Positions 299-15,919 of a DNA stretch of 15,919 nt are shown in pieces. The DNA is from Limnothrix sp. BL-A-16. GTDB lineage: Bacteria > Cyanobacteriota > Cyanobacteriia > CACIAM-69d. The position numbers and the translations under genes are program-made. The number at the start of each line of letters is the position of its first letter. Position 1 is the stretch's first letter. The stretch lies in assembly GCA_041937175.2 (NCBI GenBank), contig CP166613.1, positions 1-15,919 of the forward strand, in the 5' to 3' direction. Under the pieces are notes generated by a model. It had not been told where the DNA came from. It made no database searches and saw only the letters and a list, made by a program, of their open reading frames with translations.

Positions 299-943
299 TC
301 AATTTTCAGCTTGTTTAGCACTAGCAGCAAAGACAACATCCTCATAGACCGTTGCCAAGCTACAGCTAAAATCTAAACTCTTGAATGGAACAATAATCTT
401 AGACAAATCCATCGGGTCTTGATCAAATTCAATCCCATCAATCTGATTTTCTTGGGGGCTATAACTTTCAAAATCCCAACGTTTCGACTCTCGATGAAAA
501 TAGCAATCAATCGCAGGGCGATCGCTCGCAATCAAAATATACTCCTGCAATGACTCCAATCGCCGATATTGCCGAAATTTTTCAGAATAATCAAACGATT
601 GGGTCGATGGTGACAAAACCTCAATAATTAGACAGGGATGCCGCAAACCTTGAATCGCATCAAAATCCCGTGAATCACAGGTCACAACCAAGTCAGGATA
701 GAAAAACGGCCCCTTTTCGCTAACAAAGACCCTGGCATCACTGCCATAGAGACGGCAGTTTTTTTGCCGCATATGATTACGCAAGACCGCCACAAGGTTA
801 ATCGCGATCGCATTATGAGGCAACGTGCCTCCAGACATTGCGTAGGCTTGCCCATCCAAATATTCATAGCGCTGAGATTGTTGTACTTCCCAGACTAGAA
901 ATTCTTCTGGAGAAAGATAATTTTGATCAGAAAGAGCAATCAT
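299..943 (-). CDS. Uma2 family (PD-(D/E)xK-like) putative endonuclease
   Basis: Motifs RYEYLDGQAYAMSGGT..HNAI, FFYPDLVVTCD, PCLIIEVLSPST...D..EKF..YR..SLQEYILI. It lies between res and mod on the same strand with 23-bp and 37-bp gaps. Confidence 0.92.
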   Translation of the reverse strand: MIALSDQNYLSPEEFLVWEVQQSQRYEYLDGQAYAMSGGTLPHNAIAINLVAVLRNHMRQKNCRLYGSDARVFVSEKGPFFYPDLVVTCDSRDFDAIQGLRHPCLIIEVLSPSTQSFDYSEKFRQYRRLESLQEYILIASDRPAIDCYFHRESKRWDFESYSPQENQIDGIEFDQDPMDLSKIIVPFKSLDFSCSLATVYEDVVFAASAKQAEN

Positions 944-966
944 AAATTCACTCCATAATAGCCAAA

Positions 967-3900
967 CTAACGAATCGCAATGGTAGGACGGCCCGCGATC
1001 GCGTTGCGTAACCGTTCAGGCGTGACATTGTAGGGATCAATCACTTCCACAAACGCCCAACGACCAAAGCCCCCATGCTGGTTAATTGCCTTCACCCAAT
1101 ACTTACGAGCATAGAGAGTTTTAGAAGCTTTTGTAGGATCAGGTTTTCCCGAAACTTCCAAGATCAAATTTAACGGATCTTGCAGGTTCCCATCATTCCA
1201 CCGAATCAAAAAATCAGGAATATAATTGCGTTGCCGACCGTCAATAACATAGGGAATTGAAAACCCTAAATTCTGGTTTTTGACATAGCAAATGACTTCA
1301 TCACACTCGGTTTCCAGCACTTGCGCGATCTTTTGCTCCCAGCTATCCGTATCGGCAACCATGTGGGAAATATGACATTTTTCACGACGAGTTGTATAGG
1401 TCGATCGCGTCGTGAAAAAGTCCACCCCGTGAGTGCTGCCAGTCACATTATCCGGCGGCAAAATTGGCTTTATAAACTGATTTGAATCGCCCCGCACAAT
1501 CGCCTGATAGATCGCATCCGAGGCGCTGTAGGCATTTTCGGTTAACAGCAGCATTTGCGGATAGGTTCCCGCTTTGCACTCCAAGCACCGTTCCAGCCAC
1601 TGTTTGGTGATGCTCAAAATCTGGGGAAACAGCCACGCTTGCACATCTGGCTCAAACTCATGCTGTTTGGGGCGATCACGCTTCTGGCTGCCATCCACCC
1701 GGTAATAGCGCTCTAACACCAACTTAGCCAGCAAAAACACCACCTCTTGTTCCCGGCGTTCCTTCAGATCATCTAACCGGTGAATACTCGATTCCCCCAC
1801 AATCGGCGCGTTTTCTACCATCGTTGGGATATCGCCCGTCGTCAAAGAAAAACTTTTATCTATGAGAAAAGCCTTTAGATTGTCCTGTCTGCTTTCCAGG
1901 CGATAGCCCAACACACGGGGAAAGGAAATGGCGAGATCGGCCCGCTCTTCCAAGGCTCTCACCCGAATAGCCGCCTTGATCGTAGGTGGTTGCGTTCCTG
2001 ATGCAGCACAGGGAATAAAGGCAAACGGTACGCCATAAACCTCGGCATACTCTGGGGCAAAACCATCAAAGGTGATGGACTGGTCATTAACCGTGATCGT
2101 GCGGGGTTCCACAGCATAGCTAATCCGTCGCAAACCACGGCCCACCACTTGCTCGCACAGCAGTTGTGACCCAAAAGCCCGCACGCCCAAAATATGCGTC
2201 ACGGTGTTTGCGTCCCACCCCTCTGTCAGCATCGAAACCGACACCACACACCGAATTTGCTCGCCTAACTTGCCTGCCTTGCCCACGGTGTTCATGGCTT
2301 CTCGCAGCAAGTCAGCATCGGTCAATTTGTCAGGATCGGAACCGGGGAACCGATCGCGATATTCCTTCTTAAATTCCTCAATTTCCCCCTCTGCGATTTT
2401 CCGAAAATCAGCGCTCAGTCCCTCACCCGATTCCAATTGCTCGCTATCAATCAGCAGGGTTTTGGGCCGGGCTGACCAGCGCCCATCGGCCACATTGCTG
2501 AATAGGGGCAGCTCCCCTGGGGCCAAAATCGGATCGCCGGTGGGGGTAACTTTGCCCGTTTCGCGCCCGGCCACAAAGTCATAGACCAGCTTGGAAACGG
2601 TCGTGTTGTTGCACACCACAATGAACACCGGCGGCGTTTGGCCATTGGCGATCGCCTCGGAATCATTAGCCCAATCCTTAAAGCTCTTTTCGTAGTTGCT
2701 GTAGAGACTGCGAAGCGCCCCCTCTAGTTCTTTGGGGATCGTGATCGCCCGATCCTCGATCGCCTGCTGTGATTCCTTAGCCGCCCGCCCTTTTTTGGGC
2801 AAGGCTTCTCGCACGATCGGCCAAATATGGCGATAGATCGGCAGCTCCCCCCGTTGGCGATCGTCATCGATCGGCACGCGGGGAATTTTCACGATGCCGC
2901 TCTCGATCGCCTCAATCAGCGAAAAATCCGACACCACCCAGGGGAACAAGTCACCCTCGGGATAGCCTGACCCCTTCAGGAAAAACGGCGTGGCTGATAG
3001 GTCATAGATCGCCAAAATTCCCACTTTTTGGGCGATCGCCTCCAAACCTGAAATCCACAGGCTGGCCGATTCGCTGTTGCGCTTGGCTTCCGTCAGATCA
3101 TCGCCCTTGTACTTCTGCTGAGAGGCGCGATCGGGGTTGGGGCGATAGCAGTGGTGGGCTTCATCGTTCAGAACAATGATTTGCCGCTTGTTCCCAAAAT
3201 CCCGACAGACCCGGGCCGCCATCTGGTCTGGGGTTTCCTTAAAAGCATCTACATCGGGATTCGCCGTGCGTTTCGTGAATGCGGCCGCCTTCTCCATGCG
3301 CGGATCGGCCGTCTCTTTCAGCTTGAAGCCGTGATAGTTGGTGATCACGATTTTGGCGCGATCGAGCTGGGGCCGTAGGTCGATCGGCACCAAATCCAGC
3401 GCTTGGTAGTAGTTGCCAGAATCATTGGGCTTCAGGACTCGCAGGCGATCGCGGATCGTCAGACCAGGGGCCACCACCAGAAATGCATCGGTATAGCGCT
3501 TGAGTCTGGGGTTAGCGGCCTTGTTTAACACCTGCCAAGCCACAATCATCGACATCACCACCGTTTTGCCCGTGCCGGTGGCCATCTTCAGGGCCATGCG
3601 CAGCGCAGGCAGCAAATCGGGGTTATGGTTTTCCGCTGCTGATTTCAGCCGCTCCAAAATCCGATGATCATTGCCGCTAGGGGCCACCTCTGTCAGATAA
3701 ATCAGGGTTTCCAGCGCCTCGATCTGACAGAAAAATAGGCGACGCTCGCGATCAGTCCGCTGCCAATGCTCTAGCAGCCGCCGGGATGTGGCTGTTGCAC
3801 CCCGGTAATCATCCCGTCGCCACAAAGTCAGGCGCGATCGAATTTCGTTAACCAGGTCGTTTTTCTGGGATTTTTCCCGAATCGCCTCAATACCCAACTC

Positions 3901-4071
3901 CAATTGCGCTGATTTGCGCCTTGGGGCCGGAACGGGTACGAAATACTGGCTTTCCCGGCGCTCGGGATGGATCTCCCCTGTAATCCCTTCATCATCGAAA
4001 TGAAAATGGCGCTGCGGCTCTTCAAAAGCCGACGTGATCACCGGATTTTCGATAATGACAGGACGGGGCAT
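967..4071 (-). CDS. res: Type III restriction enzyme Res subunit (SF2 helicase plus C-terminal nuclease; BPTD_3080-like)
   Basis: LFFCQIEALET, Walker A MATGTGKT, Walker B DEAHHCY, SATP, MLTEGWDANTV, QVVGRGLR, and C-terminal YIPDFLIR...LILEVSG nuclease motif. Confidence 0.93.
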   Translation of the reverse strand: MPRPVIIENPVITSAFEEPQRHFHFDDEGITGEIHPERRESQYFVPVPAPRRKSAQLELGIEAIREKSQKNDLVNEIRSRLTLWRRDDYRGATATSRRLLEHWQRTDRERRLFFCQIEALETLIYLTEVAPSGNDHRILERLKSAAENHNPDLLPALRMALKMATGTGKTVVMSMIVAWQVLNKAANPRLKRYTDAFLVVAPGLTIRDRLRVLKPNDSGNYYQALDLVPIDLRPQLDRAKIVITNYHGFKLKETADPRMEKAAAFTKRTANPDVDAFKETPDQMAARVCRDFGNKRQIIVLNDEAHHCYRPNPDRASQQKYKGDDLTEAKRNSESASLWISGLEAIAQKVGILAIYDLSATPFFLKGSGYPEGDLFPWVVSDFSLIEAIESGIVKIPRVPIDDDRQRGELPIYRHIWPIVREALPKKGRAAKESQQAIEDRAITIPKELEGALRSLYSNYEKSFKDWANDSEAIANGQTPPVFIVVCNNTTVSKLVYDFVAGRETGKVTPTGDPILAPGELPLFSNVADGRWSARPKTLLIDSEQLESGEGLSADFRKIAEGEIEEFKKEYRDRFPGSDPDKLTDADLLREAMNTVGKAGKLGEQIRCVVSVSMLTEGWDANTVTHILGVRAFGSQLLCEQVVGRGLRRISYAVEPRTITVNDQSITFDGFAPEYAEVYGVPFAFIPCAASGTQPPTIKAAIRVRALEERADLAISFPRVLGYRLESRQDNLKAFLIDKSFSLTTGDIPTMVENAPIVGESSIHRLDDLKERREQEVVFLLAKLVLERYYRVDGSQKRDRPKQHEFEPDVQAWLFPQILSITKQWLERCLECKAGTYPQMLLLTENAYSASDAIYQAIVRGDSNQFIKPILPPDNVTGSTHGVDFFTTRSTYTTRREKCHISHMVADTDSWEQKIAQVLETECDEVICYVKNQNLGFSIPYVIDGRQRNYIPDFLIRWNDGNLQDPLNLILEVSGKPDPTKASKTLYARKYWVKAINQHGGFGRWAFVEVIDPYNVTPERLRNAIAGRPTIAIR

Positions 4072-4359: not shown

Positions 4360-7300
4360 CTACCAATGCCTATGGACTGCAATCCTGGCTAACTCTCGAT
4401 CGTCCAGATGCTCGATCGCCCGGTTACCTGTAACCCTGGCTCGGCCGTAGATGGCCACCTGTGCTTCAAGCCATTCCACCAGGCTCGATCGATCAACGAT
4501 CGCGTGCAATGCCCTGCGTTCACGCGCCGGTAACGCTTCAATCGCTTGCGCCGTAACTGTTTCACCCGATTCGATATAGGATTGGGCCAGTTGCGCTCTC
4601 GCCTCATCTGGGGCGATCGTGCCGTCCAGTAGATCAATGGACAGTTGCTTCAGGGTTTCAGCCAGAGCCTTTGCTTCAGGGGGTAAATCCTCAAGTTTCC
4701 ATTTGTTACTAAGGCTGCTAAATAACATTTGGAAACTTCCAATCGCATCACGGAAAGTCTTACCCGTTACTGCTTTCACGGCTTTAGAGACGGTTGACTT
4801 AACGATCGAGAGCTTGGCTGCTACCCCGGCTAGGGTGGGCTTGATGCCGTCCACAATTTCTTGCGCGATCGTCTCCATAACCCGCTTCTCAGTTTGGCTA
4901 CCCTTAGGCGCGGCCTCAGGGCAAAACTGATGGATCGTCTGGGTTTCAAATGCAGCCCCAGGGAAGTAGTCCAGCACCCCATCGATTAGCCACTGAGGCC
5001 AGTCACTAGCCAGGTAAACCACTTTCTCGCTGTTCCCGTGTTGGCTACGCAACCGGGCGATCGTCTGGACGGCTTCTTTGATCACTTGCGCGCGTAACCA
5101 CCGGCAATAGCGACGATGGCCCCGAACGTTGGTGGCCTCAAAATCCCAACGCCCCAGTGGATCTTCCACCGGCTCACCGGTTCGCACCTCGTAGATGGAG
5201 GCCATGGCTATCAGGTTAGGCGTGGGGCGGCCGATCATCAGCAAGGCTTGGCAGTTGCGATAGTCGTTTGATTTACGGCTGTCACGGAAGTAGGCCCCCT
5301 CGATCCCATGGCCCGTCAGGTGGGCCAGCTTATCGAATGTGGCTACGGGTTCCCCAGGGTGTAAGGCTTGCACCTGTTGGCGCAAGATTTTGTCCCTTTG
5401 CCCCGCGCAAAATTCCGAATCATCCCGCCGCTTGGCTCCAAAGTTGCCGGCCCCCGTGATGCTGTCGATTTTGAGCTTGCCTGCATAGTTTGAGCGGATG
5501 GCCTGAATTTCCACAATCGAATCGGCTGCCCATCCAAACCGGTGGGCCGTTTCCTTCAACTTGCCCGTGGCATCTGCCAACAGGACAAAATCAGCCCTGT
5601 TGAGCTTTTTGACCATCGAGCGATCTCGTGTGGTGATGGTCAGACCGTAGGTATCGGCTGCGATCGATGTTCCCGATTTTGGAGAGCTAAAGGCAATTTG
5701 CAGCAAGTCACCGATCGCCCGCACTGATTTGGCATCGTTGATCGCAGCCTTAGCCATCGCAGGGCTAGCGGCTCGATCGCCTAACTCTCTCAGGGTGTCG
5801 AGTGGATTACCCCCCAAGCGCCCAATAAACTCAGCAAGGTTTCGGGGGAAGCGTGAGCAGTGCAGGAAACGAGTTGGGGAGACTTGCGCTTTGAGTTTGG
5901 CAGGGTTTTTAGGATCGCTGGGCAGCAACAAATCGGTTGGATTCCCCTCGATCGCTCCAAACATCCCTAGGTAAACCATGTGGGACTGGCCTAGAACCCG
6001 GTTAAACCGTGCTACAGCTCCCCCATCACCCCAGGGGTCAAACATTCCCTCAGGCCCCAAGGGTAAGGCTCCTAAGAATGTTGCGCGGGTATCCAAGGGG
6101 TCTAGCCCGTGTTTCGACTTGCCAGCCAGGGCCGTGAGCCGGTCTTGCGCCGATCGCACCCCGTCGGCCATCAGTCCCTCGTAAAGAGTTGGGGCGATCG
6201 TTTGCATTCGCCCCCATTCCTGATTGGGGTAGTCTGTGTTGCGCGTCCGTTCGGTAACGATCGTTCGGTCGGATTCATCCGCCGCTATCACATCGCCATC
6301 AGCCACCGGTACAGCAGCAGGGTGGCCGATCCATGCACCCCCGTCTTGCGCTTGCTTCACTTGCTCGGTTACTGGGCAAGACCAGCCGCCCTTGTGTTCC
6401 CTAAAGGACGGGCAAGCCGCACAGACGGGGTTCTCAGTCCCGATCGGGGCATTCACCCCCTCCTGGCTAAGGAGCTGGTGAATTGTTGCTGACGGGCAAT
6501 TCGCAGGCTCAAAAAGCTCATCCTCTGGGGTGTTTGAGCCTGCTACCCTGACTTTCCCCTCTCGGGTGATCACTAGCCCCCCATGTTTTGAAGGGTAGGG
6601 GGTGAGCGCTGCGGTGGTGTCTGTGGACGGGTTGCGATGGTCGGGATCGAGCAAGATGGCCCGCGCCCGCTTGCCCGCTTCATCAGGGTGATCGGTTTGG
6701 GCGATCGCATAGTCGCGATCGATTTCGGTCTGAACTTCGATCAAATATTCCCCGATCGTGTGGGTTTTGCCGCCCCCCGCTTCTGAGGTGTCGATCGCCC
6801 GCTTATATCCCTTGCGCCGCAATTCTGACCACAGGGCATCACGATCCTGGGGCTGGTAGCAAATCTTGGGGCGATCCATTCGTTGCCACAGTTCAGAGCT
6901 TGGCAAGCAACCGGGCTGATAGATGATGGTGGCTGCGATCCGAGGCCATGCCCATGACCATTGCCCGCGGCCCGTGGCTGCATAGCTTGAGTGGTAGAGG
7001 ACGATCGCCCCATCTTTGGGAGCAATGGCCTTGGCCCCAGGCGCTGGCTTAAATCCAACGGGTTTGGAGCGCTTGGGATTGAGATCATCCTTGGTTACGA
7101 TCCGCCGATCCGCTGCCAACAGCCGATCGGTGGGCACTTCGTCAGGATCGAGCTTATCGGCCTTAGCCGATCGCCATTGCCCCCAATCGGCCACCCGCGC
7201 CGCTGGGAACAGCTCTAGGCACTTGAAAATCTGTGTGGCAACGTCCGATTGCTCTTTCCTGGGTAGCCCCGGGATTGGCTTGGGTGGGTTGGCCCATCCC

Positions 7301-8178
7301 GCGTCTGGTAGCAGGGTGATTTCACAGGGGGTGAACCGATCGACGATCGCCCGCAAGTAGTTGGGGGATGATGCCCAGTTGCAACCACCGGCCCCAACCA
7401 CGATCACGTCCAGATGCCCCGCTTCCCAAGCCTGTAGCGCGGTGATTAGGGGTTTTAGGTAGGCTTCAGTGATCCAAAGTCTGGGGCGGCGATCGAGGGG
7501 GCGATCGGGGTGTTGGAACACGGGTAAGGGCATCTCCCCGTCTAATTCCCCGTTGCCGCTTGCCAGATAGCGATACTTGCCCCCGTCAGCAGGCAACCGA
7601 TCGGGCCGCACCTGATGCAACACCAATCGCCCCTCAAGGTCTGGGGCGGCGATCGCTAGCCCTTCGTTGATGCCAGTCTCGATCGCCCCATGCCAACTTC
7701 TCACCAGCCCTGGGATGTTGTCTGGGGCACGATGGGCAGCCGTGCCCTTAACCCAGGTTTTCAGCCAGCCCTGAGACTCTGCTAGGTCGATTTGCTGGTC
7801 ATTCAACCCGCGCCGGTGCAATTCAGCCCGGTGGCGTTGGGCTAGCCGCTGGTTGGGTAGCAGGGCACGGAACACGCGATCGCGTTGATCGGCCGTGGTG
7901 AGCTTCCGCCGGGCCTCAGCTTCCTTGGCCAGTCGATCGGCCCGGTTAGCTTCAATTGCGGCCCAATCCCGTTCGGTGCGATCGCCCTTGCCCTCTACGA
8001 ACTTGGCAAAACCATGCGCGTCATCACCGATATAGCCCCAGCCGATCGGGGCGGAAACCTTACCCCGGCAATGGACTTGCAAGCGCCCATCATCACGCTT
8101 AAAGCCCCGGCACTCTTTCGATGCGCCGTTGCAGATAGGGCAATTGCCACGGTTGTAGCGAATCCATTTGGGGGCCAT
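4360..8178 (-). CDS. Putative plasmid replication protein: Zn finger + TOPRIM-like primase + SF2 helicase with Cys cluster + C-terminal HTH
   Basis: N-terminal CPIC..C..HC. TOPRIM-like WITEAYLKP...LLPDAG...DPDE. Walker A SEAGGGKTH, Cys cluster C..CAAC..C, Walker B ADES, motif III-like LADAT, motif VI-like QTIARLR. HTH-like PTLAGVAAKLSIVKSTVSKAV. Confidence 0.78.
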   Translation of the reverse strand: MAPKWIRYNRGNCPICNGASKECRGFKRDDGRLQVHCRGKVSAPIGWGYIGDDAHGFAKFVEGKGDRTERDWAAIEANRADRLAKEAEARRKLTTADQRDRVFRALLPNQRLAQRHRAELHRRGLNDQQIDLAESQGWLKTWVKGTAAHRAPDNIPGLVRSWHGAIETGINEGLAIAAPDLEGRLVLHQVRPDRLPADGGKYRYLASGNGELDGEMPLPVFQHPDRPLDRRPRLWITEAYLKPLITALQAWEAGHLDVIVVGAGGCNWASSPNYLRAIVDRFTPCEITLLPDAGWANPPKPIPGLPRKEQSDVATQIFKCLELFPAARVADWGQWRSAKADKLDPDEVPTDRLLAADRRIVTKDDLNPKRSKPVGFKPAPGAKAIAPKDGAIVLYHSSYAATGRGQWSWAWPRIAATIIYQPGCLPSSELWQRMDRPKICYQPQDRDALWSELRRKGYKRAIDTSEAGGGKTHTIGEYLIEVQTEIDRDYAIAQTDHPDEAGKRARAILLDPDHRNPSTDTTAALTPYPSKHGGLVITREGKVRVAGSNTPEDELFEPANCPSATIHQLLSQEGVNAPIGTENPVCAACPSFREHKGGWSCPVTEQVKQAQDGGAWIGHPAAVPVADGDVIAADESDRTIVTERTRNTDYPNQEWGRMQTIAPTLYEGLMADGVRSAQDRLTALAGKSKHGLDPLDTRATFLGALPLGPEGMFDPWGDGGAVARFNRVLGQSHMVYLGMFGAIEGNPTDLLLPSDPKNPAKLKAQVSPTRFLHCSRFPRNLAEFIGRLGGNPLDTLRELGDRAASPAMAKAAINDAKSVRAIGDLLQIAFSSPKSGTSIAADTYGLTITTRDRSMVKKLNRADFVLLADATGKLKETAHRFGWAADSIVEIQAIRSNYAGKLKIDSITGAGNFGAKRRDDSEFCAGQRDKILRQQVQALHPGEPVATFDKLAHLTGHGIEGAYFRDSRKSNDYRNCQALLMIGRPTPNLIAMASIYEVRTGEPVEDPLGRWDFEATNVRGHRRYCRWLRAQVIKEAVQTIARLRSQHGNSEKVVYLASDWPQWLIDGVLDYFPGAAFETQTIHQFCPEAAPKGSQTEKRVMETIAQEIVDGIKPTLAGVAAKLSIVKSTVSKAVKAVTGKTFRDAIGSFQMLFSSLSNKWKLEDLPPEAKALAETLKQLSIDLLDGTIAPDEARAQLAQSYIESGETVTAQAIEALPARERRALHAIVDRSSLVEWLEAQVAIYGRARVTGNRAIEHLDDRELARIAVHRHW

Positions 8179-12109: not shown

Positions 12110-12123
12110 GCTATGATTGCAGG

Positions 12124-12146
12124 CAGGGGCCGGGCGGCCGGCCCTG
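12124..12146 (-). terminator. GC-rich hairpin after the SWIM gene
   Basis: GGGCCGG-GCGG-CCGGCCC about 10 bp past the stop at 12156. The U-tract is weak. Confidence 0.35.
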
Positions 12147-12155
12147 TGGCGTGGG

Positions 12156-12647
12156 CTAGAAACCCAAATCAGCCAAGGCCACCAGACCAGCGGCGATCGC
12201 TTGCTCATCAGTCAGTGCGCGGTAGTCCGTGGCGATCGCCTCCAATTGTTTGCGGCCGCTCAATTCCACGGCCGCGACGTGCTTGCAATATGGGCGATCG
12301 CGTCCGGCTTCACTTTGGCGCTGGTAATCGTGGCAATCGCAAGCCAGGGACTCGCTTTCAGGATCGGGATAGACCACGTGGGGGTCATCGCCCCCGGTCA
12401 CTTCCCAGCAGTCTCCATCACGCTCGACTGTTAGGCCAGCCCCCCGATCGCACCGTTGCCGATCATGTTCGGTTTCCAGCTCTGAAAGCTCGATCGCCAC
12501 CGGGTAAACCGCCCCTGCTTCCAACACCAGGGCGTAATCCCCAAGCACCTCGATCGATTCGATTTTGCGGGGGGTGGTTCCCAGCAAGCTGGCTGCTAAA
12601 GACTTTTGAGCGAAGTAGGCGGGGCTGAATGCGGTTTGTGCGATCAT
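12156..12647 (-). CDS. SWIM zinc-finger protein, 163 aa
   Basis: CDCHDY...YCKH (CxC...CxH) preceded by WEVTG..PHVV strands. The ATG at 12647 matches the duplicated leader. Confidence 0.8.
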   Translation of the reverse strand: MIAQTAFSPAYFAQKSLAASLLGTTPRKIESIEVLGDYALVLEAGAVYPVAIELSELETEHDRQRCDRGAGLTVERDGDCWEVTGGDDPHVVYPDPESESLACDCHDYQRQSEAGRDRPYCKHVAAVELSGRKQLEAIATDYRALTDEQAIAAGLVALADLGF

Positions 12648-12796
12648 GGCTTTAGACCTTTGTGGGTTTGAGAGAGGGGTTGAGTTTGAGCGCTTGCCCC
12701 TCTCTCTGTATGCATACACTGTAGCTAATCGTATATACGCTAGTCAATACTCAATCAATCACAATCTAGCTAAACGTATAGCGTTCTGTATAAGCA
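12645..12796 (-). repeat. About 150-bp promoter/5'UTR cassette, copy C
   Basis: TTGACT (12747-12742)-N18-TACAGT (12723-12718). Perfect 10-bp UTR stem GAGAGAGGGG/CCCCTCTCTC. Confidence 0.9.
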
Positions 12797-12815
12797 ATCT
12801 TGATAGACAACTGTA

Positions 12816-12844
12816 TAGACAATCTCTAGCGCCTCAGCTATACT
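12816..12844 (+). promoter_or_regulatory. Promoter of the divergent RHH gene
   Basis: TAGACA-N17-TATACT. The -10 box overlaps a GCTATAC motif (12837-12843). Confidence 0.6.
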
Positions 12845-12877
12845 ACTAGCAGAACGCAATACAGAGCGCTAGAGACA

Positions 12878-13219
12878 ATGCCCAAAAAGCAATACAACGC
12901 ACGGCTAGAGCCGGACGCGATCGAGAATTTGCAAGCGATCGCCCAAGCCAACGGGGTATCGGTGGCCGAAGTGATCGAGGCCTCGGCCTATTGGTTGGCA
13001 GGGAACGATCGGGCCCTGGCTGATTGCTCGCTGGCCATGCGTGAGGCGATCGCTAACCGATCAGGCCAAGACTCGATCGCCCCCGTTCCCATGCCCCAGA
13101 CAGTAGCGGCCGCGGCCTTGGACTCTGAGGCCCTGACTGAGGCGATCGCACAGGCAATGGCCCCGGTGTTGGAACGGATCGAAGCGCTGGAAAAGTCAGA
13201 CGGGGCGATCGCGGCTTAG
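12878..13219 (+). CDS. RHH-domain regulator, 113 aa (short form)
   Basis: KQYNARLEPDAIENLQAIAQANGVSVAEVIE fits RHH. The C-terminus is coiled-coil-like (VLERIEALEK). Confidence 0.75.
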   Translation: MPKKQYNARLEPDAIENLQAIAQANGVSVAEVIEASAYWLAGNDRALADCSLAMREAIANRSGQDSIAPVPMPQTVAAAALDSEALTEAIAQAMAPVLERIEALEKSDGAIAA

Positions 13220-13233
13220 AACCGATCGCCCCG
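13189..13233 (+). promoter_or_regulatory. Candidate -1 programmed ribosomal frameshift signal
   Basis: G_GAA_AAG (13189-13195, contains A_AAG), a 5-nt spacer, then a perfect 11-bp stem CGGGGCGATCG/CGATCGCCCCG (13201-13233). Confidence 0.65.
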
Positions 13234-13476
13234 CAAAACGTTGCTAGTGGTGAAACGCTGCAAACAGCACTCTTAGTCACCCCTGACGCTCCCACGGGGG
13301 TGCAGCTCACCATTGATGAGGTGTGCGATCGCCTGGGTCTCAGTAGCAAAAACATTGCCAGAACCGCTAAGGATGCTGGCCATGCATCAACTGACCGCTA
13401 TTTGGCCAGCCGTGGTTTTGTTGTGGTGGGTAAGGATGGCCGTCGCAAGCTCTATGCCCCAGCAATTCCCAACTAG
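13192..13476 (+). CDS. -1 frame extension encoding an HTH/winged-helix-like domain (199-aa fusion with the RHH ORF, or a 58-aa ORF from GTG 13300)
   Basis: KVRRGDRGLEPIAPQNVASGETLQTALLVTPDAPTGVQLTIDEVCDRLGLSSKNIARTAKDAGHASTDRYLASRGFVVVGKDGRRKLYAPAIPN*. It fills the gap up to the convergent mod stop. Confidence 0.62.
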   Translation, partial: KVRRGDRGLEPIAPQNVASGETLQTALLVTPDAPTGVQLTIDEVCDRLGLSSKNIARTAKDAGHASTDRYLASRGFVVVGKDGRRKLYAPAIPN

Positions 13477-13489
13477 GCGATCGCTCGGA

Positions 13490-15919
13490 CTATCTCAGGT
13501 CGTAGACTTTCAGGACTTCATCGCCATAGTGGTTAATCACCTTGACCGCGATTTTGCCGGTGCTGGGTTTTGGGAATGGGCGGCTGGTGGTGGAATACAG
13601 CACTTCCCAAGCATCGGGATCGATTTCGGCTTTCAGGGTTTTTTGCAGCTTTTCGTAGGGGCGATCGGCTCCGGTGAAATAGGCGTGGCGAACGTAGAAG
13701 TGTTCTTCGTTGTACCGGGTGTCAATAAACCAAGCCGCAATGTCATCAGTAGTGCTGCTACGGATTTGGCCGGTGGTGGGGTCGTAGATATCCAGCCCCT
13801 TGAGCGTGACGGTGTATTGGCCATCCTCTAGGCGATCGAGCGATAGGTCTGGCTCCCCAAACACCACAAACAAATTGGCGGCGCTGGTCTTTTTCAGCAG
13901 CTCATCATCGAGCATCAGATCGGAGTTGATCCGCGTGATCAGAATTTGGAGATTGCCATAGCGTTTTGACTCTTCCGTGACGCTGGCCTCAAAGGCAAAC
14001 GCACAAACCACCAACATATCGAAACCAAAGCCCTTGACGGCTTCTTTGGCTGCTTGCTTGATATGGTCGCTGCCGACGGTTCCATATTCGGGGCCGATCG
14101 CCACAGCCACGGTTTTGCGATCGCCGTTGCTATCGACATATTCCCCAGTCGCCTGAATCCACTCGCTACCGGCGTAGGGGTCTAGGGTCTCGAACTCTAG
14201 GCGCTCACCCTTTTTGGTGTTTTGCACTCCGGCTTTGCGTAGGTTTTCGATGATCCGAATCTCGAATTGATCGCTGGCTTTAGCTTGGCCGGCTTGCTCG
14301 GATTTCGGACGATCGCCATCGGGATCGAGAACGCGATGGGGTGAAAGGCTTTCAACCGTGAAGGGGCCGGTTACACGCAGCCGCTTTTTATCCTCATAGG
14401 GCTGGTCATAGAGGGTTTCTTGCTCTGCGCGTCGGGCGATCGAGTCGTCGATCTCCTGTTGCCGCTTGCGTCGCAATTCCCACCATTGGGCGTGCTGTTT
14501 TTTGGTAGCAGCAGGCCAGTTTTCTGCTGGCTCGCGGGGAATCTCCCATTCTTGCCAGTTTTGCCCCAGTGTCCGATTCAGTTCATCGCGACAGGGTTCT
14601 AGTTTGGCCTGCCATTTTTCATGGATCGTGTCGATCTCTTCATTGTTGGCGATCGACTTGAGCGTAATGTGGGGAACCGTGCGATAGACAAAACCCTGTT
14701 TGATGTCGTTTTTGGTCTTGTTTGTTGAGACTGGCTGGCCGGTCAAATCAGCGATTTTTGCCAAGCCTTCGGGGGAATCTTTCAGCAGGTAATAGGGATA
14801 TTTAGCGGTCATCAATCGGGTGCGAGCCAATGCCAACGCAACGCGACTGGTATCGATAGCAATCCAACGCCTCCCCCATTGTTCAGCTACATAAGCTGTC
14901 GTTCCTGATCCGTCAGTGGGATCTAAGACTATATCCCCAGGATCAGTTGTCATCAGAATGCAGCGTTTTACTATTTTTTCATTAGTTTGAACAACATAAA
15001 TTTTCTCTCTAGATCCCATCGAATCTAGCCATATATTTGTTTGTGGCGAATACCCAAAGTCAGACATTAATGATTTATAGCGAAGACTCGTCTTCTTTGG
15101 TAAAATTCTATCTGCCATTTTAAGTCTGTTCATTCCAGAAAATGAGGTTTTCCAGCTATTATTCAATGGTGGACAGAACCTCTTTCCATTGATCAAAAAA
15201 TCAAATACTTGAGTCCTGAAAACCCCTCCACTCGTAAGTGGATTAGCAGATTCTTCATTTGCATGTTTTTTTATAAAAACAGGCTTAAATTTCATAAGTT
15301 TAACATTTTTTGCGAAGAACAAAATATAATCACATACTGGTTCTAATGTCGATCCTTTTTGATTTCCTGTTTTCTGAAAAACAATTGTCGATATGAAATT
15401 TTCTCCGCCAAAAACTTCATCCATCAAACAACGAACAAGATGAACATTATCATCACCAATCTGAACAAAACAACTGCCCGATTCTGTTAGTAACTCACGC
15501 GCCACCATCAAGCGATCTCGTAAATAACTGAGATAAGAGTGAATTCCTAGTTCCCATGTATCGCGAAATGCACGAATTTGTTCTGGTTGATGTGTCACGT
15601 CGTTAATTACGCCATCTTTTACATTTGTTTCTTGTATTGAAACCTGCCAATTAGACCCAAACTTAATTCCATAGGGCGGGTCAATATAAATACATTGCAC
15701 CTTGCCCCGCAAATCCTCCTTTTCCGCTAACGAATTCATCACTAACAACGAATCGCCTAAAATCATCCGATTTGACCAATCCGATGCATGGTTATAGAAA
15801 TCCACCCGCGCATCAAAATCCAATCCCCCTTCAAACGTGGTAGCAAATAAATCCAGTTGCGCTGCATTGGGTTCCGGCTCATGCCCTTCCAATTCCCGCC
15901 GAAACTCTTCAATTAAGGC
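13490..15919 (-). CDS. mod: Type III R-M Mod adenine methyltransferase, C-terminal 809 aa (896 aa in total with 1..261)
   Basis: NRMILGDSL, catalytic IYIDPPYG preceding SAM-binding VLDPTDGSGTT (beta-class order), C-terminal KIAVKVINHYGDEV. The frame is open to the window end, so the TTG at 15892 is not the start. Confidence 0.94.
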   Translation of the reverse strand, partial: ALIEEFRRELEGHEPEPNAAQLDLFATTFEGGLDFDARVDFYNHASDWSNRMILGDSLLVMNSLAEKEDLRGKVQCIYIDPPYGIKFGSNWQVSIQETNVKDGVINDVTHQPEQIRAFRDTWELGIHSYLSYLRDRLMVARELLTESGSCFVQIGDDNVHLVRCLMDEVFGGENFISTIVFQKTGNQKGSTLEPVCDYILFFAKNVKLMKFKPVFIKKHANEESANPLTSGGVFRTQVFDFLINGKRFCPPLNNSWKTSFSGMNRLKMADRILPKKTSLRYKSLMSDFGYSPQTNIWLDSMGSREKIYVVQTNEKIVKRCILMTTDPGDIVLDPTDGSGTTAYVAEQWGRRWIAIDTSRVALALARTRLMTAKYPYYLLKDSPEGLAKIADLTGQPVSTNKTKNDIKQGFVYRTVPHITLKSIANNEEIDTIHEKWQAKLEPCRDELNRTLGQNWQEWEIPREPAENWPAATKKQHAQWWELRRKRQQEIDDSIARRAEQETLYDQPYEDKKRLRVTGPFTVESLSPHRVLDPDGDRPKSEQAGQAKASDQFEIRIIENLRKAGVQNTKKGERLEFETLDPYAGSEWIQATGEYVDSNGDRKTVAVAIGPEYGTVGSDHIKQAAKEAVKGFGFDMLVVCAFAFEASVTEESKRYGNLQILITRINSDLMLDDELLKKTSAANLFVVFGEPDLSLDRLEDGQYTVTLKGLDIYDPTTGQIRSSTTDDIAAWFIDTRYNEEHFYVRHAYFTGADRPYEKLQKTLKAEIDPDAWEVLYSTTSRPFPKPSTGKIAVKVINHYGDEVLKVYDLR

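Follow-up and report, generated by a model that had tools for sequence, protein, structure and literature searches.

A probable programmed −1 frameshift adds a winged-helix-like domain to a putative ribbon-helix-helix protein on a small plasmid-like contig of Limnothrix sp. BL-A-16

The stretch of DNA analyzed here, which we call the window, is the entire second contig (15,919 bp) of the Limnothrix sp. BL-A-16 genome, an assembly of two contigs and 4.56 Mb in total, and it looks like a small plasmid. On its forward strand lies an open reading frame (ORF1) for a protein of 113 amino acids (aa), whose stop codon sits within a palindromic stem-loop. The −1 frame continues past this stop and encodes a second small domain, which we call ORF2 where it is read as a gene of its own (Table 1). 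The initial annotation, made from the sequence, had interpreted these elements as a programmed −1 frameshift that gives two isoforms of a regulator, a ribbon-helix-helix (RHH) protein alone or an RHH protein joined to a winged helix. The comparisons reported below support that proposal, in that the layout is kept in three of three loci with readable DNA and relatives carry canonical slippery heptamers.

TABLE 1 Coordinates of the features discussed in the text
Feature	Coordinates	Strand	Remarks
Uma2-family nuclease gene	299-943		
res gene of a type III restriction-modification pair	967-4071		ResIII domain; weak TnsA-like C-terminal match
1,272-aa ORF	4360-8178	-	No Pfam, NCBIfam or PHROG match
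SWIM zinc-finger ORF, divergent from ORF1	12156-12719	-	Pfam E, 1e-4
Intergenic region between divergent genes, AT-rich, CTGTATA/ATAGACA-type motifs repeated	12700-12877		Direct and inverted repeats found
Sigma-70-like promoter candidate TAGACA-17-TATACT, 5' of ORF1	12816-12844	+	10/12 consensus matches; a consensus match only
ORF1, 113 aa plus TAG	12878-13219	+	N-terminal RHH-like domain, disordered stretch, long C-terminal helix
Shift site G_GAA_AAG	13189-13195	+	In register with ORF1; A-site tetramer A_AAG canonical
−1-frame linker, 37 codons, Pro/Ala/Thr-rich	13195-13305	+	AF2 pLDDT ~51-57 over residues 1-30
Spacer TCAGA, 5 nt	13196-13200	+	
Stem-loop with HIP1-type arms GGGGCGATCG / CGATCGCCCC, 11-nt loop	13201-13233	+	Candidate stimulator
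0-frame stop TAG, in the hairpin loop	13217-13219	+	
ORF2, alternative reading, 58 aa from GTG 13300	13300-13476	+	
−1-frame winged-helix-like domain (3 helices and a beta hairpin) and stop TAG 13474-76	13306-13476	+	

The N-terminal part of ORF1 has the features of a small DNA-binding protein. In an AlphaFold2 (AF2) model of the monomer, an extended N-terminus precedes helices at residues 12-25, 29-40 (predicted local distance difference test [pLDDT], ~85) and 83-106, with residues 65-82 disordered, and the last and longest helix terminates exactly at the shift site described below. RHH domains form their strand in the dimer only. The Pfam model RHH_1 matched residues 8-35 with an E value of 0.0024 and 18.2 bits, which lies under its cut-off of 20.5. 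Given this sub-threshold match and the AF2 model, we regard the ORF1 N-terminus as a putative RHH-like DNA-binding domain. ORF1 had no meaningful match in NCBIfam or PHROGs.

Among 5.8 billion proteins we found 18 homologues of ORF1, all of them 107 to 121 aa long apart from one 89-aa fragment. The residues equivalent to G109, I111 and A112 are invariant in all 19 proteins of the family, which share a C-terminal end of G-A-I-A(A) with one A-to-L change; the exception, P0015, ends in G-L-I-A instead, implying an altered stem arm, because the G-A-I-A end is the translation of the stem's 5' arm. When the alignment was read by eye, every one of the 19 also had, one or two residues before G-x-I-A, a dipeptide that can be coded as NNA-AAR/Y. 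Five types of dipeptide occur at this place (E-K in 11 proteins, K-N in 3, K-K in 3, G-N in 1 and G-K in 1), and DNA stands behind four of the five. No relative was convincing in 401 GTDB representative genomes of the phylum (only short matches, with E values of at least 0.004), none was present in seven other GTDB genomes of the order, and none was found in genome-contig scans, in viral contigs or, by tblastn, in PLSDB plasmids. The host genome holds no paralogues, the best E values being 0.22 and 0.16. Two proteins, P0019 and P0020, have N-terminal halves unrelated to that of ORF1, one of them another RHH-like sequence, on the shared C-terminal helix, E-K dipeptide and G-A-I-A-A end. These other heads on the same C-terminus suggest that the 3' portion of the gene is mobile as a unit or that the DNA-binding head is exchanged.

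At the 3' end of ORF1 in the window, the 0-frame codons are CTG (13187-89), GAA (13190-92) and AAG (13193-95), followed by TCA GAC GGG GCG ATC GCG GCT TAG. The initial annotation had described CTG GAA AAG, a gap of 5 nucleotides (nt) and a perfect 11-bp stem with CGATCG arms and the TAG in its loop, and the sequence bears this out exactly: positions 13201-13211 pair with 13223-13233 over 11 bp through CGATCG-based arms, with one further pair past a bulge. A 52-nt segment holding the stem folds at −24.0 kcal/mol (z score, −4.2), and 0 of 200 shuffled sequences were as stable; a longer stretch around it folds at −32.1 kcal/mol (z score, −3.5). In the sections of the review by Atkins et al. (2016; PMC5009743) used here, Z_ZZN is the least that a −1 motif must contain, A_CGA_AAG (Bacillus cdd) and G_CGA_AAG (IS1222) are given as cases in which A_AAG works behind a non-canonical P-site codon, G_GGA_AAG is strongly shift-prone in Escherichia coli, and spacers are typically 5 to 9 nt. 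The part of PMC4066793 consulted adds that the best bacterial motifs permit cognate re-pairing in the A site.

Across the host genome, 13 of 32,503 canonical X_XXY_YYZ heptamers (both strands, any frame) precede a 38-nt fold at −24 kcal/mol or below, so that the combination of a heptamer with so stable a fold is rare. One such chromosomal candidate, an AAAAAAG site with a hairpin at C1:758538, was dropped because its 0-frame ORF has only 37 codons. An intrinsic (Rho-independent) terminator, a GC-rich stem followed by a U tract, was also considered for the ORF1 stem and rejected. The sequence directly 3' of the stem reads GCAAAACG in the window, AGACCCC in L015 and AGCGCCCC in L016 (two metagenome loci introduced below), and there were no terminator-like sites in positions 12600-13600. 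We found no promoter-like site between ORF1 and ORF2, and a search of Rfam over 12500-13700 returned no family, its sole row being a chance microRNA match (E, 0.2).

Past the shift site, the claim that the −1 frame stays open held: counted from 13195 it runs for 93 sense codons before TAG at 13474-76. Over that interval the 0 frame is closed by stops at codons 7 and 26 and the +1 frame by nine stops, leaving only the −1 frame open. Its stop falls 13 bp before the end of the convergent mod ORF at 13490, as had been noted. The predicted products, one of 113 aa and one of 199 aa (106 + 93) with the junction ...ALEK/VRR..., are those first given, and the helix-turn-helix (HTH)-like and beta-hairpin-like peptides that had been singled out, LTIDEVCDRLGLSSKNIARTAK and GFVVVGKDGRRKLY, are both present in the −1 product.

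The distal part of this product is modeled by AF2 as a compact domain, with pLDDT values of 86-90 over residues 40-90, helices at 40-47, 54-60 and 66-72, and strands at 75-81 and 84-89. The best rows from Foldseek were winged-helix proteins (S25e, SmtB, CzrA and Z-alpha), all weak matches with E values of at least 0.078, and the best rows from VIA-align were likewise winged-helix proteins, again weak (Z, at most 3.7). The Pfam models HTH_17, HTH_24 and MarR_2 matched the domain below threshold. Because the fold matches are weak and the Pfam matches sub-threshold, "winged-helix-like" is used here to state a topology and not membership in a family. A sequence-profile search of the PDB with the ORF2 domain gave chance rows only (E, at least 0.053), and NCBIfam and PHROGs gave nothing meaningful for the −1 product.

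Sequence relatives of the −1 domain do exist. When 1.84 billion representatives were searched exhaustively and without a profile, the −1 product recovered five proteins at an E value of 0.001 or less, three of which (P0022, P0024 and P0025) are real relatives. The homologues of the domain comprise P0022 to P0025, P0033 and P0034, and the domain is homologous across seven sequences, with identities of 84 to 94% to P0022 and P0023 and 53% to P0025. An ORF2 profile run over genome contigs gave only four short, weak matches, from unrelated phyla.

Relatives of the locus could be read at the DNA level in the metagenome loci L015 and L016 and in several short contig ends. In L015, whose ORF1 is 69% identical to that of the window, the gene ends in ...GAG CTA AAA AAG CCA GGG GCG ATC GCC TAA, which places the canonical heptamer A_AAA_AAG in register; a 3-nt spacer leads into the same stem (10 bp, −19.6 kcal/mol, z score of −5.3) with TAA in its loop, and 90 codons of open −1 frame lead into a domain homologous to that of ORF2. 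In L016, ORF1 ends in ...TTG GGA AAC GCA AAC GGG GCG ATC GCC TAA, giving G_GGA_AAC in register, a 6-nt spacer, the same stem (−24.4 kcal/mol, z score of −3.9) with TAA in its loop, and a −1 frame open for 87 codons, into the conserved domain. The 0 and +1 frames are interrupted by stops in all three loci, and the −1 frame alone is open. What marks a frameshift cassette, namely an in-register slippery tetramer or heptamer, a stable 3' structure and an open, conserved −1 frame, is found here and kept in the relatives.

Contigs from four public runs (X1, X2, X7 and X13), compared over 12700-13600, extend this picture. Ends of the X2 and X7 contigs read ...CTAAAAAACG and abut window base 13197. 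In the window's frame they carry A_AAA_AAC in register, matching the ELKNADGAIAA ends of P0005, P0007 and P0012. X7 and X13 show matching insertions around 13190-13196, and in the loose ends past 13232 of X2, X7 and X13 the −1 frame, read by eye, is open over the 10 codons shown. One position is thereby occupied by four different slippery motifs, in which the X positions change jointly (A_AAA in one lineage, G_GGA in another). The initial annotation had proposed checking that homologues keep the frame break, the motif and the hairpin, and the window, L015 and L016 do keep all three.

Aligned with L015, the window has unchanged stem arms set in freely diverging flanks, and the nucleotide sequence just 5' and 3' of the stem is unalignable between the two. 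The arms are identical in L016 as well. The linkers are unalignable among relatives, yet always open in the −1 frame, and they are Pro/Ala/Thr-rich. The first conserved residue of the domain lies 111 nt past the shift site in the window, 108 in L015 and 105 in L016, a spacing that changes in steps of 3.

A natural counterpart of the long product is found in P0025, a distant relative of 164 aa in which both halves are fused in frame. Identity is 52% between ORF1 and its residues 1-61 (E, 9e-17) and 53% between the −1 domain and its residues 102-161 (E, 2e-17), and the halves are joined through a (PPPPA)n linker without a G-A-I-A cassette. A search with P0025 found only itself, and NCBIfam and PHROGs gave nothing meaningful for it. 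Its existence means that the long architecture, RHH plus winged-helix-like domain, occurs as a called protein.

P0025 also lends itself to a different account, in which an ancestral in-frame gene of its kind was hit by a 1-nt indel, or by an error of assembly, and only the 113-aa fragment is made. We consider this very improbable. The break stands at the same place in the window, L015, L016 and contigs from independent studies, where the slippery motifs differ; the stop is in the hairpin loop in the window, L015 and L016; the 18 homologues of ORF1 end at the same G-A-I-A; and the downstream domain is intact and conserved at the identities given above. The initial annotation had named an indel error in the reads as a way in which its proposal could fail. 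A 653-nt contig of run X1 reproduces window positions 12742-13394 with 0 differences and 0 gaps, so the frame break is not an assembly indel, with the qualification that X1 may be the source sample.

The A-rich character of the site raises the further alternative that RNA polymerase slips on a run of A and alters the frame of the mRNA, with no slippage by the ribosome. Six-A runs are present in L015 and in the X2/X7 variants. Known slippage-prone runs comprise some 7 to 9 or more identical bases, and the window has only 4 A and L016 only GGGAAA, which fall short of the long homopolymer that such slippage takes. The conserved 3' stem at 3 to 6 nt is, moreover, a hallmark of ribosomal slippage, and the two processes are treated apart in the sections of PMC5009743 used here. 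We give transcriptional slippage almost no credence at this locus.

Several observations weigh against ribosomal frameshifting, and we gather them here. The window's own heptamer is non-canonical: its A-site tetramer fits, but tRNA-Glu must re-pair from GAA onto GGA, which requires a central G.U pair. The host encodes both tRNA-Lys(UUU) and tRNA-Lys(CUU), and from the work of Tsuchihashi and Brown in 1992 on E. coli dnaX, a CUU tRNA-Lys should reportedly lower slippage on AAG. In L015 the spacer, at 3 nt, falls under the usual range of 5 to 9. Hairpins of the form GGGCGATCG-N3-25-CGATCGCCC, built on the cyanobacterial repeat HIP1, occur 56 times in the whole genome, so a stem of this type is common. 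The arms never vary among the window, L015 and L016, so that covariation is absent from the stem, and it may be that the arms are conserved through whatever process keeps HIP1 in the genome. The relatives with readable DNA are a small sample, giving three loci when the window is counted, and P0025 is a singleton cluster (one member, two contigs) known from its protein sequence. Lastly, likely as we hold frameshifting to be, the case for it is built from sequence comparison; in public runs labelled RNA, at most 0.08 of the sampled words were present.

Three more observations count on the same side, in that they favor two ordinary genes at the locus. The ORF that begins at GTG 13300 holds the entire folded domain in its 58 aa, a 58-aa NCBI sequence (P0029) on a 15,919-bp contig is on record, and P0024 (71 aa) begins with ATG. 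On this account ORF1 ends at its TAG, a small winged-helix protein is initiated independently at GTG 13300, the stem-loop is a generic HIP1 structure that perhaps stabilizes the RNA, and the A-rich motif is incidental; the 56 similar hairpins and the host's tRNA-Lys(CUU) fit it as well. The position of the start, however, is unconserved. The first ATG, GTG or TTG in the −1 frame is 2 residues 5' of the domain in the window (GTG 13300), 13 residues 5' of it in L015 and 16 to 19 in P0022 and P0023, whereas in L016 it falls inside the conserved domain (at the V of LTVPEF) and no start is present 5' of the domain. By eye, no Shine-Dalgarno-like sequence stands at a usable distance before GTG 13300. 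Two independent genes would also leave aside that in three of three loci the −1 frame runs on from the shift site without a stop, though the linkers are unalignable and their lengths differ by multiples of 3, that one site bears four slippery motifs, all different and all in register, and that a natural in-frame fusion exists. Independent initiation of ORF2 is poorly supported by these comparisons, and we regard two separate genes as an unlikely explanation of the locus, albeit one that is compatible with frameshifting, since both could operate together. The initial annotation had allowed that its proposal would fail if homologues were always fused in frame or always separate with a start at GTG 13300; we found one fused relative and a start whose position varies.

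Given the conservation described above, real programmed −1 frameshifting probably takes place at the end of ORF1. We likewise think it likely that ORF1 and the downstream −1-frame domain form one recoded gene on a small cyanobacterial plasmid backbone, with two proteins made from one gene. Under programmed frameshifting, most ribosomes would read ORF1 through to the TAG in the hairpin loop and release the 113-aa protein, in which a long helix follows the putative RHH DNA-binding domain. Some would pause while GAA occupies the P site, AAG the A site and the 11-bp GC-rich stem the mRNA entrance 5 bases on. These paused ribosomes would slip back by one base, so that AAG is replaced by AAA, enter the proline-rich linker and append the winged-helix-like domain of ~55 residues, yielding a 199-aa protein with two DNA-binding modules. 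That slippage occurs, and how efficient it would be, we infer from sequence.

A plausible target for both products lies directly upstream. The AT-rich region 12700-12877 contains divergent promoter-like sites in addition to its repeats, and against L015 it is highly conserved, at least equal to coding sequence. It probably serves as promoter and operator for ORF1 and the divergent SWIM gene. Acting on this repeat region, both products may control either of the two genes that flank it, their own and the SWIM gene, or else the replication and maintenance of the plasmid. The initial annotation had gone further, suggesting that the two products are made at a fixed ratio and that the long one possibly serves in DNA bridging or in ParA-independent segregation; these additions are speculative and so far unsupported.

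The frameshift mechanism proposed here is classical (dnaX/IS3 type). In insertion sequences (IS) of the IS3 family (IS911, IS150, IS3 and IS1222), a short DNA-binding OrfA with an HTH ends just past A_AAA_AAG or A_AAG, a stem-loop follows, and slippage by −1 yields a longer fusion with the same N-terminal DNA-binding region, the gene organization called orfA/orfAB in IS911 and IS150. IS1222, with G_CGA_AAG, is in addition an example of the natural use of a non-canonical P-site codon before A_AAG, according to the same sections of PMC5009743. The present gene differs from the IS3 family in three respects: the extension is a ~55-aa winged-helix-like domain and not a DDE transposase; the gene is on a plasmid backbone by a putative replicase, without IS inverted repeats; and the stimulator is built of the cyanobacterial HIP1 palindrome.

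In E. coli dnaX, a stem-loop is located a few bases 3' of the heptamer. The dnaX tau/gamma system resembles our locus in having A_AAA_AAG (as in L015) before a stable stem-loop and in making two products from one gene, as set out in the portion of PMC5009743 drawn on here. There, however, the shift leads to a near-immediate stop and a shorter product, whereas here the shifted frame adds a domain. E. coli also has a single tRNA-Lys, and the BL-A-16 host has two. The 5' Shine-Dalgarno-like stimulator of dnaX is not conserved: reading by eye, we saw a GAGG 10 nt 5' of the heptamer in L015 (3328-3331) and 7 nt 5' of it in L016 (198-201) and none in the window. The g-t frameshifts of tail-assembly chaperones in phages and in the haloviruses HCTV-1, -2 and -5 are similar in that a shift extends the C-terminus (PMC5009743, in the sections used here), but those are viral structural chaperones, and ours is putatively a plasmid DNA-binding regulator. 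ORF1, the −1 product and P0025 had no PHROG match.

CopG, ParG and omega are RHH regulators of plasmids, and ORF1 is like them in its small N-terminal RHH-like domain, its place on a plasmid backbone and the adjoining repeat-rich promoter region. Its RHH_1 score, being under the cut-off, leaves this a likeness and not membership in the CopG, ParG or omega group. We know of no CopG, ParG or omega regulator that is extended by recoding, and to our knowledge, apart from insertion sequences, phage tail genes, dnaX and a handful of further cases, few bacterial genes have a well-supported programmed −1 frameshift. A full-text literature search, covering few subscription-journal papers, turned up no account of recoding in an RHH or plasmid regulator, nor of HIP1 in the role of frameshift stimulator. 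The class of gene, a plasmid-backbone RHH regulator given a winged-helix extension by recoding, appears unreported.

If true, this would be a plasmid DNA-binding regulator that gains a second DNA-binding domain solely by recoding, with a built-in setting of the ratio of one-headed to two-headed forms and with a HIP1 palindrome put to use as a functional RNA stem. Annotations should probably merge the ~113-aa "hypothetical proteins" of this family with the 58-aa ORF2 calls into one recoded gene, and for the design of cyanobacterial vectors, a conserved backbone module is marked beside the putative replicase. We also put forward a broader idea that is possible but doubtful: that the C-terminal helix, slippery site, HIP1 hairpin, proline-rich linker and winged-helix domain are one portable recoding module swapped between RHH heads on cyanobacterial plasmids, that the HIP1 palindrome was co-opted as a frameshift stimulator, and that the ratio of short to long product controls the replication or copy number of an uncharacterized plasmid family with a Toprim-like replicase.

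HIP1 is a signature repeat of cyanobacteria whose function there is still debated. The octamer GCGATCGC has 5,226 copies on the chromosome contig of BL-A-16 and 26 on the 15,919-bp contig. Several of the 56 HIP1 hairpins combine short loops with extended flanking complementarity, and together these hairpins may be a class of HIP1-based RNA or DNA structures.

The genes around the recoded locus indicate the kind of replicon that carries it. The 1,272-aa ORF has language-model neighbors among Toprim/DnaG-like (primase-type) proteins and "CyRepA1 family" plasmid replication proteins, which serve as a lead only, and it is probably the replicase of an uncharacterized cyanobacterial plasmid family. 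L015 carries, 3' of its cassette, the C-terminal part of a homologue of this ORF (38% identity; E, 2e-70), and it has the SWIM ORF at the same position (53% identity). The conserved upstream region, the SWIM neighbor and the homologue of the 1,272-aa ORF in L015 together argue that the recoded gene belongs to the plasmid backbone, and its likeliest role would be in regulating the divergent promoters or in replication and maintenance. NCBIfam and PHROGs gave nothing meaningful for the backbone proteins. L016 has, 3' of its cassette, a 384-aa ORF (654-1808, minus strand), which by eye shows an HTH-like N-terminus and an HEAAH motif in the C-terminus; it is unlike the neighbors in the window and L015, so the downstream context is not conserved.

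The remaining observations concern the rest of the contig. The mod (methylase) ORF on the minus strand (13490-15919; 2,430 nt; Pfam N6_N4_Mtase, E of 8e-34) consists of whole codons up to the high end of the contig, and a minus-strand ORF of 87 codons, with its ATG at 261 (region 1-261), runs off the low end. The two would join as an ORF of ~896 aa if the molecule were circular, which is consistent with a circular plasmid. The type III res/mod pair and the Uma2 gene (299-4071 and 13490-15919) separate backbone genes that adjoin in the smaller relative L015, and they look like inserted cargo. A 171-aa ORF on the plus strand (12113-12628), without a family match, overlaps the SWIM ORF. Contigs of runs X1, X2 and X7 carry a partly self-complementary 20-base insertion after 13484 that is absent from the window, and the insertion site is within the 13-bp gap separating the convergent stops of ORF2 and mod.

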